From sequence record MT446390.1: a stretch of DNA of 64,000 bases; one strand, written 5' to 3'. Shown here one piece after another: positions 2,687 through 39,985 of this stretch. The notes under the pieces were generated by a model, which saw only the letters and a list, made by a program, of their open reading frames with translations, did no database searches and had not been told where the DNA came from. Made by a program: the position numbers and the translations under genes. The stretch's first letter is position 1. Each line of letters begins with the position of its first letter. The stretch is from Escherichia phage TH12.

Positions 2687-3163
2687 ATGAAAGTGAAGAT
2701 TGCTGACACTGCTCGGTATTCACTAAGCCAAAATCCAGACCAAAACAAAGAAGATGTAGTTCGACGTTGTAAGGTTGCAGTCTTTGCAGAGTATGTAGTA
2801 GCAAATTGGCTAGACGGATATGTTAATAAAGGTATTGAAGATGTAGAAGACCCGTACACGTATGCATGGGACGTGTTAGCCCATCCCAAATATTGTGGAA
2901 TTCGTGTAGAAGTCAAGACACATCAGATGGATTCTAAATGGATTTCTGTTACCACAGGATACAGTGGTGATTATCCGGGTGGCAACGGAATCAACATAGG
3001 GCCCTTCCTTAATCATCGAGTCGCTGACTGTATTATTATATTGAATGTCAAAGAAACCTCACCTGACGTCTTCTCTTATTCTATAAAGTTCGTTGGAGAC
3101 CATGAAGACCTAAAGAAAATCGTCCGCAAGAGCAACTACAACGGGTGGTATCTTCATCTTTAA
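2687..3163 (+). CDS. hypothetical protein at the position occupied by denB (endonuclease IV) in T4
   Basis: ATG at 2687 (MKVKIADTARY...) in frame with ORF-track 2543..3163; identity to DenB not verified. Confidence 0.5.
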   Translation: MKVKIADTARYSLSQNPDQNKEDVVRRCKVAVFAEYVVANWLDGYVNKGIEDVEDPYTYAWDVLAHPKYCGIRVEVKTHQMDSKWISVTTGYSGDYPGGNGINIGPFLNHRVADCIIILNVKETSPDVFSYSIKFVGDHEDLKKIVRKSNYNGWYLHL

Positions 3164-3175
3164 TTTCATAAAAGT

Positions 3176-3212
3176 GTTTACAACTAAGTAGGACTATGAT
3201 ATAGTAGTCCTA
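3176..3212 (+). promoter_or_regulatory. early-type promoter (GTTTAC -35, TATGATATAGT -10 region) embedded in inverted repeat TAGGACTA/TAGTCCTA
   Basis: GTTTAC at 3176-3181, AT-rich -10-like element in loop of 8-bp inverted repeat 3189-3212; ~20 nt upstream of RBS/ATG 3232. Confidence 0.4.
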
Positions 3213-3231
3213 TCTAAAAGAGGATAACATC

Positions 3232-4812: not shown

Positions 4813-6138
4813 ATGCAATTGAATTCTCGTAATCTAAAAAGTATTATTGATAACGAAGCCTTAGCATATGCTATGTACACCGTTGAAAACCGTGCAATCC
4901 CAAACATGATTGATGGATTTAAGCCGGTTCAACGTTTTGTGGTTCATCGTGCATTAGATTTGGCTCGTGGTAATAAAGAAAAATTTCATAAACTTGCGTC
5001 AATTGCAGGCGGTGTTGCAGATTTAGGTTATCACCATGGTGAATCTTCTGCACAAGATGCAGGTGCATTGATGGCTAACACATGGAATAACAACTATCCA
5101 CTATTAGATGGTCAAGGCAACTTTGGTTCTCGAACAGTCCAAAAAGCTGCAGCATCTCGTTATATTTTTGCTCGTGTAAGCAAAAATTTCTATAATGTCT
5201 ATAAAGATACCGAATATGCTCCAGCTCATGAAGATAAAGAACACGTTCCACCAAAATTCTATCTTCCTATTATTCCGACAGTTCTTTTGAACGGTGTCTC
5301 TGGTATTGCAACCGGTTACGCAACAAATATTCTGCCTCATAGTTTTAAATCGGTCAAAAAGGCTGTATTACAAGCTCTTCAAGGTAAAAATGTCACTAAA
5401 CCAAAAGTTGAATTCCCGGAATTCCGCGGTGAAGTGCATGAAGTTGATGGGCGTTATGAGATTCACGGAACATATAAGTTCACATCTCGCACTCAAATGC
5501 AGATAACTGAAATCCCATATAAATTCGACCGTGAAACGTATGTGAGTAAGGTTCTTGACCCGTTGGAAGACAAAGGTCTAATCTCATGGGAAGATGATTG
5601 TGGTGAACACGGTTTTGGGTTTAAGGTGAAGTTCCGTAAAGAGTACTCGCTTCCTGATGATGAAGAGCTACGTCATGAAAAAATCATGAAAGATTTTAGT
5701 CTCATCGAACGTCGTTCACAAAACATCACAGTGATTAATGAAAAGGGTAAATTAACGGTCTACGATAACGTAGTGGACTTAATCAAAGATTTTGTTGAAG
5801 TCCGTAAGACTTACGTTCAGAAACGTATTGATAACAAAATCATTGAATCTGAAAAAGCATTTAAACTGGCTTTTGCTAAGGCACACTTCATCAAAAAAGT
5901 TATCAGTGGCGAAATTGTGATTCAAGGCAAGACTCGTAAAGCTTTGACTGAAGAGCTAGCACAAATCGAAATGTATAAAGAACATATCGATAAATTGGTA
6001 GGTCTTAACATCTTCCATATCACTTCTGACGAAGCACGTAAACTAGCAGAAGAAGCTAAAGCTAAGAAAGAAGAAAATGAGTATTGGAAGTCTACTGATG
6101 TTGTGACAGAGTACACTAAAGACTTGGAGGCACTTTGA
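4813..6138 (+). CDS. 52: DNA topoisomerase II medium subunit (gp52)
   Basis: 441 aa; N-terminus MQLNSRNLKSIIDNEALAYAMYTVENRAIPNMIDGFKPVQRF is GyrA/ParC-like and matches recalled T4 gp52 (442 aa). Confidence 0.9.
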   Translation: MQLNSRNLKSIIDNEALAYAMYTVENRAIPNMIDGFKPVQRFVVHRALDLARGNKEKFHKLASIAGGVADLGYHHGESSAQDAGALMANTWNNNYPLLDGQGNFGSRTVQKAAASRYIFARVSKNFYNVYKDTEYAPAHEDKEHVPPKFYLPIIPTVLLNGVSGIATGYATNILPHSFKSVKKAVLQALQGKNVTKPKVEFPEFRGEVHEVDGRYEIHGTYKFTSRTQMQITEIPYKFDRETYVSKVLDPLEDKGLISWEDDCGEHGFGFKVKFRKEYSLPDDEELRHEKIMKDFSLIERRSQNITVINEKGKLTVYDNVVDLIKDFVEVRKTYVQKRIDNKIIESEKAFKLAFAKAHFIKKVISGEIVIQGKTRKALTEELAQIEMYKEHIDKLVGLNIFHITSDEARKLAEEAKAKKEENEYWKSTDVVTEYTKDLEAL

Positions 6139-6214
6139 GTGCCCTAGCCTTAGGATTTCTCGGTGCAATAGCTGCACTAGTGATTTGGCTGTATTGGTTG
6201 GACAAACATGATTA

Positions 6215-6234
6215 GGGAGCTTCGGCTCCCTTTT
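6215..6234 (+). terminator. rho-independent terminator (GGGAGC-TTCG-GCTCCC + T4)
   Basis: GC hairpin with TTCG loop and T tract downstream of gene 52. Confidence 0.6.
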
Positions 6235-6257
6235 GTGCATTTTTTTCTCACAAAACA

Positions 6258-6298
6258 GTTTACATGTGCTTCAAACATGATATTATAGACCTATCAAA
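6258..6298 (+). promoter_or_regulatory. early/middle promoter cassette (GTTTAC ... TGCTTCA MotA-box-like ... TATTATAGACCTATCAA)
   Basis: Near-identical copy at 6579-6619; contains TGCTTCA resembling MotA box plus -10-like TATTAT. Confidence 0.45.
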
Positions 6299-6325
6299 AC
6301 AAAACAACCAAATTGGAGAAATAAA

Positions 6326-6541
6326 ATGTCTAAAATGAAATTAACCCAAAACACAACTACTCGTTTCGGTAAAGTTAAACCTGGTATGAATGCTCTCCGT
6401 AAAGCACTTGTTGAAGAATTAAATTTCTTAGAAGTTGAAATCAATTCTTTAGTGGTTCGCGGTTCAAATGGACATCATTTAGAAAAGCTTCGTTCTAAAA
6501 AGGCAAAACTTATTAGCCTTATTAAAGAAATGAGTTTGTAA
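6326..6541 (+). CDS. hypothetical protein (71 aa)
   Basis: ORF with RBS GGAGAA; leader and first codons (MSK) duplicated from the motA leader. Confidence 0.55.
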   Translation: MSKMKLTQNTTTRFGKVKPGMNALRKALVEELNFLEVEINSLVVRGSNGHHLEKLRSKKAKLISLIKEMSL

Positions 6542-6578
6542 ATTTTACCAGGGCTTTTGAAAAAGAGCCCAAAATAAA

Positions 6579-6619
6579 GTTTACTTTTGCTTCAAACATG
6601 ATATTATAGACCTATCAAA
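6579..6619 (+). promoter_or_regulatory. early/middle promoter cassette for motA (duplicate of 6258-6298)
   Basis: Shares the 31-bp string GCTTCAAACATGATATTATAGACCTATCAAA with the upstream copy. Confidence 0.45.
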
Positions 6620-6643
6620 CAAATACTAATTTGGAGAAATAAA

Positions 6644-7276
6644 ATGTCTAAAGTTACTTACATCATCAAAGCTTCTGAAAACGCTCTGAATGAAAAAACT
6701 GCTGCAATAATGGTTTATATCATTAAGAACAACTTCACCACTGCTGCCAATGTCCGTGAAGCTCTGAAAGCGGAATACAACGCATCAGTTGTTAACTCTA
6801 ACATTGGTGTATTGATTAAGAAAGGTTTAGTCGAAAAATCCGGTGATGGACTTGTAGCAACAGGCGAAGCAATGGATATTATCCAAAAAGCTGCAGACCT
6901 CTTTGCCCAAGAAAATGCTCCAGAACTTCTTCAGAAACGTAACACTAGAAAAGCACGTGGAGTTACTCCTGAAATGCATGAATTAGCAAACTTTGTTTTT
7001 GAAAATATTAAAGATAAAGTTGAAGTTAAAGAAATTGGTGAAAACCGTAGTAACTTAGAAGTTCGATTCGCTAAACGAGTTCTAGGTATTCGTCAGATCG
7101 AAATTCGTCGAGATGGCGCTCTTAGAATCTTTGCATACAACATGTCAGAAACTGAATCAAAGCTGTTTACTTCTCTTGAAAATGATGTTAAGATTAAGAT
7201 CGGTGGTAAATATACCTACATTGACTTCCCTAATGTGTCCAAAGAAATCATTACCCTTGTAACTAACGTACTGTGA
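6644..7276 (+). CDS. motA: middle-transcription activator MotA
   Basis: 210 aa; MSKVTYIIKAS..., NSNIGVLIKKGLVEKSGDGL matches recalled T4 MotA (211 aa). Confidence 0.9.
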   Translation: MSKVTYIIKASENALNEKTAAIMVYIIKNNFTTAANVREALKAEYNASVVNSNIGVLIKKGLVEKSGDGLVATGEAMDIIQKAADLFAQENAPELLQKRNTRKARGVTPEMHELANFVFENIKDKVEVKEIGENRSNLEVRFAKRVLGIRQIEIRRDGALRIFAYNMSETESKLFTSLENDVKIKIGGKYTYIDFPNVSKEIITLVTNVL

Positions 7277-7286
7277 GGAATACATA

Positions 7287-7616
7287 ATGAATAAGCTTAA
7301 TATTATTAACGAACTTCGTAAATGTGCAGAACCTACTCAGGAAGGATGGGATATTTGGTACCACGGGGCTTATTTAGGGACAATTGTAAAGATTAAAGCA
7401 GGCCAATATACGGTTATTCGTGAAAATAATGATGCGCCATTTGGCCTTCGTAAAAACTACATGGCAGCGATCAGTTCATTTGTTGATGCAGCTTACGAAA
7501 TCTATAAAGAAGATTATAAAGAATACCACCAATCACAACCTGTTATTCGTTCGATTGGTGTAAATAAACAAGCACAAAAATCTATTTGGCAACGTATTAA
7601 GGAATGGTTTAAATGA
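7287..7616 (+). CDS. hypothetical protein (109 aa)
   Basis: ORF with RBS; stop overlaps next start (ATGA). Confidence 0.6.
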
Positions 7617-16022: not shown

Positions 16023-19000
16023 TTATTCAACCCATATAAATTTAACTGTTTTGTTAACCGGGTCTGGAACAATTCTCACATTTCCTAATTGTAAGAAGTC
16101 TCGAATAGTAAGGTTTCCAATAACAGCATTATCAGATGGGATAGCACCGACATCGCTAGGTGAAGGTGGGTTGCCACTATCAAATACCATTGCAAATGAA
16201 GTCCAAGCATCTTTATTTTTCTGCCAGGTACGAGTATAACGAATACTACCACCATTTGCACCTGTAGGATAACAAATCCAATCCTGATAAAGCGAATCTA
16301 AGCTATTGCCGAATTGAGTCAAAGTACCAGGATATTTAATTTCTTGGTCACGGTTACCTTTGCTATCACGCGTCCAGTATCCAGGGAATTGGCTATATAC
16401 AGCAGAATCGTTAATGTCAATAGACCAAAAACCTACAGTAGAAGCTGTTGGTTTATCGGTATAAACAGTGGCTGTTTTAACGCCGTTAGAAATAATTCTG
16501 CTATTTACAGTTAACCCACCGGTAGTTATTGTTGCACCACTCGTGATTTGAACACCATTGTCAAGACGAACTAAGCCTGTGGCGTTGTTAATCGTGATCG
16601 GGCGTAAGTTATTAAACGTCCCGGTCTGGTCACCTGAGTTAGTTAATGCAATATAAGAACTGTTACCAGCATTATAAAGCATAACACCATAGTTACCATT
16701 AATAGCTCTGAATGCAATAGGAGAACTAGAAACAATTTCGCCTGTAGCACTAATAGGCCCTGTAAAGGTAGAAACACCTGTAACATTTAATCCATTTGTA
16801 GAAACAATACCTGTTGAATAAAGTGTTCCATTAATATTAAATGATACTCTATTATCAGCAGCGCGCTGAGAATAGAAATGGTATCCGGTTTCGTCACCCG
16901 CTTCAAATACTGTATCACGGGCACCATCTGTAGCGCTATTACCCCATGCTCTAACAACGAAATTCTCTTTATTACTAAGAGATTGGGTTCCTTTAGTGAA
17001 AATTATTTCAGAACCGCTAGAATCATTAAGAGTTAATCTACGAGTAACAGATGCTTCGGAACCAAAAGAAGCAGTGCTTGTAGATACTAAAGGAGCACTC
17101 AGGTTGGTCTGTTTAGTAAGACTTAAAGAACCATTAACCGTCTGGTCGATGTCTCTACGGATGAACTGAAGAGAATCTAGACCATCTAACAAATTACTAT
17201 CAGCTGCTTTAGCTTTCAACGGTAAGTAGTTAGCAAGTACACGGTTTAATTCATATGGTGATACCGCATAGCTATTTTTCTCATATGATTCTAAAGATTG
17301 TGTTGAACCAACTGTATCATTACCAACAAATGTAATAGAACCAGATGAAGTTTTAACGAATCCACGAATTGCCGTAGTAGCAGTCCATGATGGTTCTGAT
17401 TGAACAATCCATTTTAAATTCTTAGGTGATACAGCAGTATTAGCAGAAGTTCCTGTTACAGTTTCAGCCTGAGTAGCAACCTTAATTACGCCTTCAGACG
17501 TTTCAGTGGACTTAGTCCCTAAAAGCTTTTTAGGAGTAATAAGAACATCATCTAAAGTTCCTGCATTAGATTCTGCCTGGGTCGCTACGCGAAGTGTACC
17601 GCGTTGTGTTTCATTTGCTTTAGAAATATCAAGAGTATAATGGTTCCACAAGGTTCCTTCTTCAATAAGTCCGGAATCAGAATTAACACTGGTACGGTCA
17701 GAAGAATCAAAATGAGTTTTAATTTTCAGTGGAGACGAGATACGAGTATCATCAGTTCCAGTATCAAATTCAACTTGCGTAGCAATTTCAGCTATGCCAG
17801 ATAATCCTTCCGTAGCTTTCCTATCATTTAACGTCTTAGGCGTTACTGCTCTAGTATAATCAGTTCCAGTGTTAGTTTCTGCTTGCGTAGCAATTTCAAT
17901 TAAACCAATACGTCCATCAGTAGAAGTTTTCTTATGCAGAGTTTCAGGGGTCACTACAGCATTAGGCCAACCTGCTTGTGATTCGCCAGCGATAACTTCA
18001 CTTTCAATAGCAAGAATTACTGCACCTTGCTGAGTAGGGGTAGCTTTATATTGGTCAAGGGCCTTTGGAGAAATAGTTAAATTATCTACGGCTTTGTTAT
18101 AAACGTTAGTCCCAGCATTACCACGAATAGTAGCAGCTGTAGTACCAGTCGTAGATGTGTATTTTACAATACCAGATAAAACTTCAGAACCTTGACGGGC
18201 ATCCAATTTCTTAGGAGTAATAATAGTGGTGTCATCTGTTCCAGCATTAGTTTCAGCCTGAGTTGCAACTTCAGCAACACCTCTACGGGTTTCAGTTGCT
18301 GTACGTTCGTTCAATTTCTTAGGAGAAATAATCAAGTCGTCTTGGAATGCAAAATCGGTATTCTGGTTAACTTGTGCAGTTGTTGCAATACGAGCAATAC
18401 CACGACGAGTTTCAGTTGCTGTACGATTTGCTAATGTTTCCGGAGTAATAGCCAGTTCTTTACCAGGAGCATTTTCTAAATCGACATTTGCTTGCGCTTG
18501 AGAAGCAAGAGCAATAACACCTAAACGAGCTCGAGTGGTATTGCTCGATGCATCGACTCGTTCGACGGTTACAGTGTTTTGTTGAACTACCCAATATTTT
18601 GTTTCAGATGAATAATCTTCTATATAAGCTAACTCAAGTACAGGTACATACGAAGTATCGCCATTAAATTCCAGCTCACTAACAGAAACCCATTGTGCAT
18701 CAGGTGGATACTCTGAACGTTTTGGGAACTGTAATAAAGAAATACTGGTAGCAATTGTATCGCCTTCAGCAGCTTTAATTTTTACAGTTTGCCCTTTACG
18801 CATATAATTCAACGATATTTTAACAGTATCGCCAGACAAAATATCTGTAGGCAAAGTAAGATTTACCGTCGAGATTGTATCATTATTAGTTCCAAAAACA
18901 AGAACTTCTTCATTAGGGCGTAAATCAGTATCATTACGAACTATACGTAAACGAGATTTCTGGTCACCTTCCCAAACACGCCATAAGCTATTAGCAGAAT

Positions 19001-33753: not shown

Positions 33754-33968
33754 CTAAAGAACAGCATGAATACATTAAAGGGCTTATCTATGAATCTGAA
33801 ATGGCGGCTATGATTTATGGGCGCCAGATTCAACGATTAGAATCTTTGCCTCCGACTAATGACCGATTGTTAGTTCAGTCTCGTGCTAATCTGAAAAATG
33901 AATATCAGAATAAGTGGGCAGTAGCGACTAAAGCTCTTCATGAGTATATCGAATCTTTAGTAAAATAG
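33744..33968 (+). CDS. hypothetical protein (74 aa)
   Basis: ORF overlapping previous stop. Confidence 0.5.
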   Translation: MPMTKEQHEYIKGLIYESEMAAMIYGRQIQRLESLPPTNDRLLVQSRANLKNEYQNKWAVATKALHEYIESLVK

Positions 33969-39514: not shown

Positions 39515-39616
39515 TGCGTTTAGGGCAGAAAAAGTTTAAAAAAGATGTTTACTCTCCTGTAGGATGTGTTACTATAGACTTGTACCACCTAATCAATAAA
39601 ACAACCGGAGAATAAA

Positions 39617-39985
39617 ATGAAAATCAATCTGAACTCATACATCAAATGTAAAGACCACGATGGTTATAAAGCTATCGAAATTAAAGAATTCCAGTGGATG
39701 TTATACAAAGAGCAATTTGAGTTCGTAGGTTGTATGACCCCTGAAGGTCCTTCTGATGATTTCTCTTGGAAAATTGTGTTAGCAAACTTTTTCACAGGTG
39801 ACACGTACGAATTAAAAACTATTATTACCGGTAAAATTCGTTCAGAAACATATGTTGACGAAGAAACTGGTTACTCTGAAGATGTTACATGGTATCAAAA
39901 TGGACGCATTACAGCAGATAACCTGATCGAAAAAATGAAAGCCAAAGGTGTTTTAAATTTAGACAATTGGATTAAAGTTGCATAA
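39617..39985 (+). CDS. hypothetical protein (122 aa)
   Basis: ORF with RBS GGAGAA and upstream promoter cassette. Confidence 0.6.
   Translation: MKINLNSYIKCKDHDGYKAIEIKEFQWMLYKEQFEFVGCMTPEGPSDDFSWKIVLANFFTGDTYELKTIITGKIRSETYVDEETGYSEDVTWYQNGRITADNLIEKMKAKGVLNLDNWIKVA

Follow-up and report, generated by a model that had tools for sequence, protein, structure and literature searches.

The closest described systems to the locus reported here are the promoter-early stem-loop (PeSL) cassettes of T4-type phages. A PeSL is a conserved unit of ~100 bp, known from RB49/phi1, which consists of a stem-loop, an A/T-rich stretch, an early promoter, a Shine-Dalgarno sequence (SD) and an ATG (Arbiol et al. 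2010, PMC2839356), and PeSLs have also been found in T4/PST and KVP40/nt-1 (Comeau et al. 2014, PMC4122927). PeSLs flank ORFans, recombination between neighbouring motifs gives mini-circles, and crossovers take place, for example, between the -10 and the SD (PMC2839356). T4-type recombination needs only small patches of homology, <50 bp (Arbiol et al. 2010, PMC2839356). Here we analysed 64,000 nucleotides (nt) of Escherichia phage TH12 (MT446390.1; this whole stretch is called the window below), in which an open reading frame (ORF) of 71 codons, ORF71, lies between gene 52 and motA and is flanked by two direct repeats, each carrying a promoter, a leader and a start codon. This feature is a PeSL-flanked ORFan cassette, which is a known kind of element, and its particulars are a slot beside an essential regulator, four classes of deletion junction, a leader scar, and the replacement of the motA promoter through cargo transfer. 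We consider it likely that the two repeats are PeSL units with a role in both expression and recombination.

The likeness to the published cassettes extends to several details. In both cases two composite motifs flank a small ORFan and a sister genome carries a single chimeric motif, crossovers fall between the -10 and the SD or in the upstream region, and cargo is swapped between the same motifs; the promoters are of the T4/PST variant, with the stem-loop just upstream. However, the 52-motA locus, Mosigvirus and Dhakavirus are absent from PMC2839356 and PMC4122927, the right-hand gene here is an essential core regulator and not an ORFan, the repeat runs through the first three codons, and the downstream hairpin has no U-run. 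The morons of lambdoid phages are also comparable, being autonomous promoter-ORF-hairpin units between two conserved genes and dispensable. Nevertheless, the GC content of morons differs from that of the phage and their arrival is thought to involve illegitimate recombination, whereas the unit here is bounded by homologous repeats that would mediate gain and loss. Novel ORFs of T4-like phages have the same GC content as the phage (Nolan et al. 2006, PMC1524935).

The window belongs to Mosigvirus (RB69-like Tevenvirinae), and the interval in question is 97.6-99.1% identical to many Mosigvirus genomes (CCU7, Shf125875, ATK47). All features of the locus are on the + strand, in the order stem-loop 1 (SL1), repeat copy 1, ORF71, stem-loop 2 (SL2), repeat copy 2, motA. 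On the left, the slot is bounded by the conserved gene 52 (4813-6138; 441 aa), which encodes the medium subunit of DNA topoisomerase II and is labelled DNA topoisomerase II or gp52 in all close relatives. The conserved right flank is motA (6644-7276; 210 aa, MSKVTY...), the activator of middle transcription (Pfam MotA_activ, 2.4e-39, and MotCF; phrog_1345, 7e-90). The cargo between them, ORF71 (6326-6541; 71 aa, MSKMKL...), is predicted to be a small early protein.

Copy 1 (6249-6334) comprises an A-rich upstream element, an early promoter, a leader, the SD and the codons ATG TCT AAA of ORF71, and copy 2 (6570-6652) has the same composition and ends with ATG TCT AAA of motA. An exact-string search of the 64-kb window found the 31-mer GCTTCAAACATGATATTATAGACCTATCAAA at 6268 and 6589 only, as the first-pass annotation had reported, and it extends to a 32-mer beginning TGCTTC at 6267 and 6588; the leader 22-mer TTGGAGAAATAAAATGTCTAAA occurs at 6313 and 6631 only. 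The repeat search returned two blocks, 6249-6305/6570-6626 (57 nt, 86% identity, spacing 321 nt) and 6307-6334/6625-6652 (28 nt, 93%, spacing 318 nt). In a gapped alignment of the whole units (86 nt and 83 nt), 75 of 83 positions are identical and the leader contains one 3-nt gap, which bears out the earlier statement that ORF71 and motA share a nearly identical promoter, ribosome-binding site (RBS) and first three codons. When the promoter core was searched for with a degenerate pattern, the 64 kb gave these two sites only, against 0.00 expected (100 shuffles).

Both copies carry all parts of a PeSL. Early promoter 1 (6258-6286) has the -35 GTTTAC at 6258-6263, TGCTTCA in the spacer at 6267-6273, the extended -10 TGA-TATTAT at 6278-6286, a predicted start at ~6293 and the SD GGAG at 6315-6318; it scores 10/12 with the TG in a consensus scan. 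Early promoter 2 (6579-6607) has GTTTAC at 6579-6584, TTTTGCTTCA at 6585-6594, TGA-TATTAT at 6599-6607 and GGAG at 6633-6636. The promoters can thus be written as GTTTAC-N17-TATTAT, or as TTTACA and TTTACT, respectively, 16 nt and TATTAT with a TG extension (6259-6286 and 6580-6607). As predicted from sequence, both fit the consensus TTTACW...TAYWAT of T4-type PeSL promoters (PMC4122927), are intergenic and face the downstream ORF. The type of early promoter 2 also precedes motA in Dhakavirus, Marfavirus and Moonvirus. The A/T-rich elements TTTTTTTCTCACAAAACA and CAAAATAAA precede GTTTAC in copy 1 and copy 2, respectively, and in both copies GGAG is followed by ATG 7 nt later.

Upstream of each -35, at a distance of 8-27 nt, lies a stem-loop. 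SL1 (6214-6246) is intrinsic-terminator-like, with the hairpin GGGAGC-UUCG-GCUCCC at 6214-6231 followed by UUUUGUGCAUUUUUUU, which contains the U-run; it folds with -15.5 kcal/mol (z = -3.7), is annotated as a Rho-independent terminator in ATK47, and stays complementary in the stem variants of relatives (GGAACC/GGTTCC, GGAGCC/GGCTCC). In RB69 the terminator hairpin GGGAGC-CGAA-GCTCCC (~270-290 of the RB69 locus) is the exact reverse complement of GGGAGC-TTCG-GCTCCC in the window (6215-6230), hairpin and loop being flipped. SL2 (6551-6570), GGGCUUUU-GAAA-AAGAGCCC, folds with -12.3 kcal/mol (z = -3.5) and is kept in Mosigvirus, Dhakavirus, IME281 and HP3, with 97.5% of cells paired. Since no U-run follows it, SL2 would act as an attenuator or as a hairpin at the RNA end, and not as a canonical terminator. 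The two leaders lack structure (-2.2 and -2.6 kcal/mol, z ~0), and GGAGAAATAAAA in both of them agrees with the strong RegB site GG*AGRAYARAA (PMC3014915) at 9 of 11 positions, or at all positions if a 1-nt insertion is allowed. The motA mRNA of T4 is a RegB target (PMC3014915; PMC2988021). An Rfam scan of 5800-7400 (E <= 1) gave a chance match to STnc150 at 17 bits alone, and no known RNA family. An apparent compensatory change in an inverted repeat of the copy-1 spacer (CATGT..ACATG in the window, CACGT..ACGTG in ATK47) was also considered and dropped, as phiC120 and p000v hold mixed combinations.

Evidence for a recombination role comes from relatives. About 150 Mosigvirus records hold the 52-motA interval, and roughly half of them, including RB69, lack exactly ~320 bp of it; relatives therefore do not all carry ORF71 between non-repeated flanks, the outcome under which the first-pass annotation would have given up its view of the gene as a cassette. 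By tblastn, ORF71 is found in 93 phage records with one copy in each, 76 of them Mosigvirus-like (>=87% identity) and 17 from Dhakavirus (72-76%). Every ORF-less genome aligned from the fetched loci carries a single hybrid repeat, and the point at which copy-1 markers give way to copy-2 markers differs. Four types of junction were found in all, two in Mosigvirus and two in Dhakavirus. In O157tp3, RPN187, phiC120, p000v, G2285, ESCO47, a20, phiE142 and one IMG/VR contig, the copy-1 upstream element, the spacer and the ORF71-type leader are joined to motA, with the junction within the 22-nt block. In RB69 and pEK20, the copy-1 upstream element and spacer are followed by the copy-2 (motA-type) leader, and the junction lies within the 32-nt core. 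Dhakavirus QL01 joins the copy-1 upstream element to the copy-2 leader near the -35 or the core, and Dhakavirus LQ5 joins the copy-1 (ORF71-type) leader to motA at AAAATG, with ~6 nt of homology.

Presence and absence are patchy relative to the relatedness of the flanks, because the immediate flanks of the ORF-less RPN187 (99.3/98.4% identical to the window) and a20 (98.7/98.4%) are at least as close as those of the ORF-bearing ATK47 (98.7/97.2%). An assembly artefact behind the ORF-less genomes can be rejected, as they come from >70 independent records, including the Sanger-era RB69, with several distinct junctions. A scan of IMG/VR for MotA loci gave two loci, both ORF-less, and is of little use for counting. 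The first-pass annotation had proposed that such repeats can delete or duplicate the intervening gene; the deletion half of this agrees with the relatives that lack exactly ~320 bp and keep one hybrid repeat, whereas no variant with two copies of ORF71 was found in the 93 records. In addition, two Mosigvirus genomes, G2285 and pEK20, have the Dhakavirus version of the tiny ORF after gene 52 (34 aa) and the Dhakavirus SL1 stem, and Mosigvirus sequence resumes at the hairpin/T-run, so the hairpin is also a mosaic boundary.

The direction of these events can be approached by comparing the two genera. Between Mosigvirus and Dhakavirus, nucleotide identity is 75.8% for ORF71, 72.3% for the adjacent part of gene 52 and 75.1% for the part of motA, and because its divergence equals that of the flanks, ORF71 is old and not newly acquired. 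Markers specific to each copy are orthologous in both genera, namely the AAAACAAmA with which the copy-1 leader begins, the copy-2 upstream element CAAAATAAA and the initial AAAyAAAT of the copy-2 leader. The copy-2 leader is motA's own leader, since it also resembles the motA leader of Marfavirus. The commonest ORF-less type and LQ5 nevertheless have the ORF71-type leader before motA, a scar for which the only explanation is that an ancestor with the cassette underwent a deletion. The ORF71 cassette thus appears to be ancestral to Mosigvirus and Dhakavirus and to have been lost repeatedly since, a direction that we infer, and the presence/absence polymorphism of ORF71 would mostly be due to loss. 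In T4-type phages, motA is preceded by one hairpin-promoter, and the upstream element of this unit agrees with that of copy 1 (TTTTTTTCACAAAACGGTTTAC), which suggests a still older state without cassette.

Within each genus, the two copies agree in both genus-specific substitutions of the core (TGCTTC or TGCTTT; TATTAT or TACTAT), a pattern that fits gene conversion between the copies. Moreover, ORF71 of Dhakavirus starts with ATGAATAAG (MNK) behind a different SD region, so the best reading of the extension of the Mosigvirus repeat through ATG TCT AAA is that gene conversion copied this tract from the motA leader.

One alternative is that the ORF-less state is ancestral in Mosigvirus and ORF71 was recently acquired through the repeat. 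The single T4-type hairpin-promoter with its copy-1-like upstream element would agree with this, the RB69-type genomes, in which motA has its own leader, could be pristine, and other cargo has been inserted by this route in HP3 and IME281 (see below). We nevertheless regard it as unlikely, given that the inter-genus divergence of ORF71 carries no sign of recent transfer, that the markers of the two copies are orthologous in two genera, and that the ORF71-type leader stands before motA in the majority ORF-less type and in LQ5. The earlier suggestion that ORF71 is an acquired cassette accordingly holds for the slot, which takes unrelated cargo in IME281 and T4-type phages, and fails for a recent arrival of ORF71 itself. 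The same annotation took T4 to have no gene between 52 and motA. This is mistaken, as T4-type phages have motA.1 (49 aa) there, and it is ORF71 that T4 lacks.

The slot is able to accept different cargo. In Dhakavirus IME281, an unrelated ORF of 75 aa (ORF75) replaces ORF71 between the same promoter and the same SL2 and promoter. One boundary of the exchange is CTATCAAA, near the predicted start of transcription, and the other comes directly after the stop codon, ahead of SL2. In all, 168 phage records, most of them from T4-type phages, contain ORF75 with 97-99% identity, and it is located between motA.1 and motA in HP3, G4498, L14 and others. Between IME281 and HP3, ORF75 is 98.7% identical and SL2 with the promoter 91%, whereas the gene 52 and motA flanks are only ~70% identical; therefore the ORF, the hairpin and the promoter were recently transferred together between genera. 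In HP3, the cargo stands behind the resident T4-type motA promoter, and motA stands behind a Dhakavirus-type hairpin and TGCTTTAAACATGA promoter. The HP3 record (NC_041919) has Rosemountvirus in its taxonomy line, although the phage is of the T4 type by sequence, with 96.9-98.7% identity to PP01 across 52 and motA. The record also gives motA.1 the name 'flagellar motor protein MotA', and both this label and the Rosemountvirus placement look like annotation errors.

A homolog of ORF75 also occurs at another place. In Salmonella phage S16 (locus 760-1210), gp55.1 lies between nrdC.11-like and nrdC.10-like genes, with a hairpin and an early promoter before it and a near-identical promoter-leader repeat after it (TACTATTACyTCATACCAAATAAATGGTAAAACAAAA..TAACTTGGAGAATAAAATG). 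In Citrobacter phage Merlin (locus 100-1400), three small ORFs, including an ORF75 homolog, are found between 52 and motA, with an early promoter before at least two of these ORFs and before motA, and two of the promoters have the GTTTAC-nnn-yGCTTTAA type of spacer. The three-ORF arrangement implies that the slot can hold a multi-cassette array.

In the mechanism that we propose, ORF71 and motA would each be transcribed right after infection from their own strong sigma-70 promoter, and both mRNAs would be shut off alike, by RegB cleavage predicted in the GGAG. A crossover anywhere in the ~85-bp direct repeats (32 and 22 bp exact), through the very active homologous recombination of the phage, would excise ~320 bp, namely ORF71 together with SL2 and one of the repeats, and the excised DNA could in principle form a mini-circle. 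Any crossover point would regenerate an intact promoter-leader-ATG before the essential motA. The reverse reaction, or a double crossover in the conserved motifs during co-infection, would insert or swap cargo.

Several points weigh against reading the repeats as PeSL units with this dual role. Part of the repeat identity is a generic early promoter and leader consensus, GTTTAC...TGnTAyTATAGACyTATCAA...GGAGAAnnAAAATG, which is common to other early promoters of the window. The homogenisation argument depends on two informative sites only. The covariation of SL2 is weak, with one compensatory pair that is not significant (99/500 shuffles), and SL2 is no canonical terminator, as mentioned above. 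Promoter and hairpin activity, RegB sensitivity and the mini-circle intermediate are our inferences. With regard to the deletions, the ~6 nt of homology at the LQ5 junction means that not every event was ordinary homologous recombination, the common O157tp3-type junction could be one old deletion spread by recombination, and it is conceivable that RB69-type genomes are ancestral and never bore the cassette. Finally, the repeats might not be needed for exchange, since the genomes of co-infecting phages could simply cross over twice, in gene 52 and in motA.

The generic part of the consensus leads to a second alternative, namely that both genes simply need the same very strong early promoter and RegB-sensitive RBS, so that the repeat reflects regulatory convergence or constraint and has no role in rearrangement. 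The common occurrence of GTTTAC, TGnTAyTAT, TATAGACyTATCAA and GGAGAAnnAAAATG would be expected in this case, as would a leader near the RegB consensus, which many early genes share. However, when the 19 GTTTAC-N16-18-TAnnnT sites of the window were compared pairwise, the two copies were 81% alike over 58 anchored positions, compared with 69% for the next-best pair and a mean of 47% (standard deviation 10%), and the spacer TGCTTCAAACATGA occurs only in this pair among the 19. Convergence also gives no account of the single hybrid copies in relatives, which lack exactly the interval and have their breakpoints inside the repeat, nor of the genus-specific substitutions common to both copies. We consider it very unlikely. 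A third idea, that ORF71 arose from a tandem duplication of the motA 5' region or belongs to a site-specific mobile element with target duplications, could appeal to the MSK start of both ORFs and to the direct repeats around one small gene, and yet it is hardly credible, as ORF71 shares nothing with MotA beyond MSK, the MNK start and different RBS in Dhakavirus mark MSK as a secondary replacement, no endonuclease, integrase or transposase is found in or beside the cassette (ORF list, PHROG, Pfam), the breakpoints differ among genomes, unlike in site-specific recombination, and the repeats are predicted functional promoter units of ~85 bp, not short target-site duplications.

The first-pass annotation had also compared the TGCTTCA element to a MotA box. 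The resemblance is real at the level of consensus: TGCTTCA matches in both copies, TTTTGCTTCA of copy 2 matches the full 10-mer WWWTGCTTYA, and copy 1, which reads ATGTGCTTCA, matches the core. The position, however, does not agree. A MotA box, (a/t)3TGCTTtA, is located 12±1 bp upstream of the -10 (PMC2988021) and its GCTT core is expected at -30..-27 (PMC1524935), whereas the spacing in the repeats is 7 bp and GCTT falls at about -25..-22. No TAnnnT was found 11-13 bp downstream of the box in either repeat copy. Given the 7-bp spacing, the good GTTTAC at the -35 and the lack of such a TAnnnT, the two promoters are early and not middle promoters, and the reading of them as MotA-dependent middle promoters was rejected. 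Compared with T4 middle promoters, the likeness is thus confined to the box itself and to the fact that the phage encodes MotA and has well-spaced pairs elsewhere; the differences are that the box is too near the -10 and that the -35 consensus is kept, whereas a middle-promoter box centred at -30 replaces the -35. The + strand of the window contains nine matches to TGCTTYA-N11-13-TANNNT where 1.8 are expected, and both repeat copies fall outside this set. These candidate middle promoters are at 17616, 20777, 25160, 26705, 35105, 38383, 50436, 54612 and 59767.

In Mosigvirus, Dhakavirus and Marfavirus the motA promoter carries a conserved TGCTT[C/T]A, and in Moonvirus it has CGCTTTA. The box is degraded in ESCO47 (CGCGTCA) and O157tp3 (CGCTTCA), and the motif also stands before other genes in Merlin and PhiKpNIH-6. 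There is a slim chance that the misplaced box (TTTTGCTTCA, centred ~5-6 bp too near the -10) is a negative autoregulatory operator in the spacer of the motA early promoter. If so, accumulated MotA would bind its own early promoter and help to shut it off, and the duplication of the promoter at cassette insertion would put each new cargo, here ORF71, under MotA-dependent shut-off. Such an operator would be relevant to the way in which the early promoters of T4 are abruptly silenced, which is still unexplained.

The cargo of the window itself, ORF71, belongs to phrog_6200 (1.1e-39), a family of unknown function, and has no Pfam match above threshold. A search of 5.8 billion proteins gave eight clusters of homologues, all >=72% identical and restricted to Mosigvirus and Dhakavirus. 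The ratio of nonsynonymous to synonymous substitution rates (dN/dS) is 0.20-0.23 between the genera, and judging from these substitutions ORF71 is a real gene under purifying selection. Within Mosigvirus, ORF71 of the window and of ATK47 (locus 3014-3226) differ by 3 nonsynonymous changes (L24P, H50R, S64G) and 0 synonymous ones, numbers too small to interpret. In the AlphaFold2 model (predicted local distance difference test score of 76), the N-terminus is basic and disordered and contains the invariant motif RFGKVKPGMN, and a helical hairpin comes after it (helices 23-44 and 50-70). A Foldseek comparison of this model with PDB and BFVD gave no informative fold match, the only hits being designed helical bundles, WHEP domains and ORF71's own ortholog. 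A weak BFVD match to a protein of Klebsiella phage P545 was set aside, as the small ORF beside P545 motA has no similarity to ORF71. ORF71 is dispensable, because about half of the otherwise near-identical phages lack it, and a role as an accessory early host-takeover or anti-defence factor is a guess.

Outside the repeat, a tiny TTG-start ORF of 26 codons (6135-6215), encoding the hydrophobic peptide (M)SALALGFLGAIAALVIWLYWLDKHD, overlaps the stop codon of gene 52 (TTGA). Its homologues include ATG-start versions in ESCO47 and, with 34 aa, in Dhakavirus, and in the T4-type PP01 motA.1 is found at its position, so that it is the positional counterpart of T4 motA.1. This ORF is without annotation in most Mosigvirus records.

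Elsewhere in the window, short inverted repeats bracket the -10 of many early promoters (+ strand: 3176, 3688, 33968, 36094, 46902). For example, TAGGACTA..TATAGT..TAGTCCTA is found at 3176 and GGAGCA..TATAAT..TGCTCC at 33968, and such repeats resemble a subclass of PeSLs whose stem-loop extends over the -10. Other tandem pairs of early promoter and leader surround small ORFs at 39547/39990 and 3176/3688 (+), with the members of a pair 66-69% alike. A 122-aa ORF (39617-39985; T4 30.7-30.9 region) sits in one of these pairs, and for 39547/39990 the presence/absence pattern in relatives is mosaic (53-100% coverage), with no simple indel seen.

Taken as a whole, the 52-motA slot is found empty and with either of two unrelated cargos, and it shows four deletion junctions, a transfer between genera in which the motA promoter was also replaced, and a leader scar that gives direction. 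The 320-bp interval, with states that can be scored by PCR, offers a compact experimental system for repeat-mediated deletion and mini-circle formation. ORF71 and ORF75 are flagged as dispensable early proteins under purifying selection and as candidates for host takeover or anti-defence. The locus extends the PeSL model to RB69-like and JS98-like coliphages, which are widely used in phage therapy collections, and it provides an unusually clean natural record of how small early genes are gained, lost and swapped in T4-like phages.

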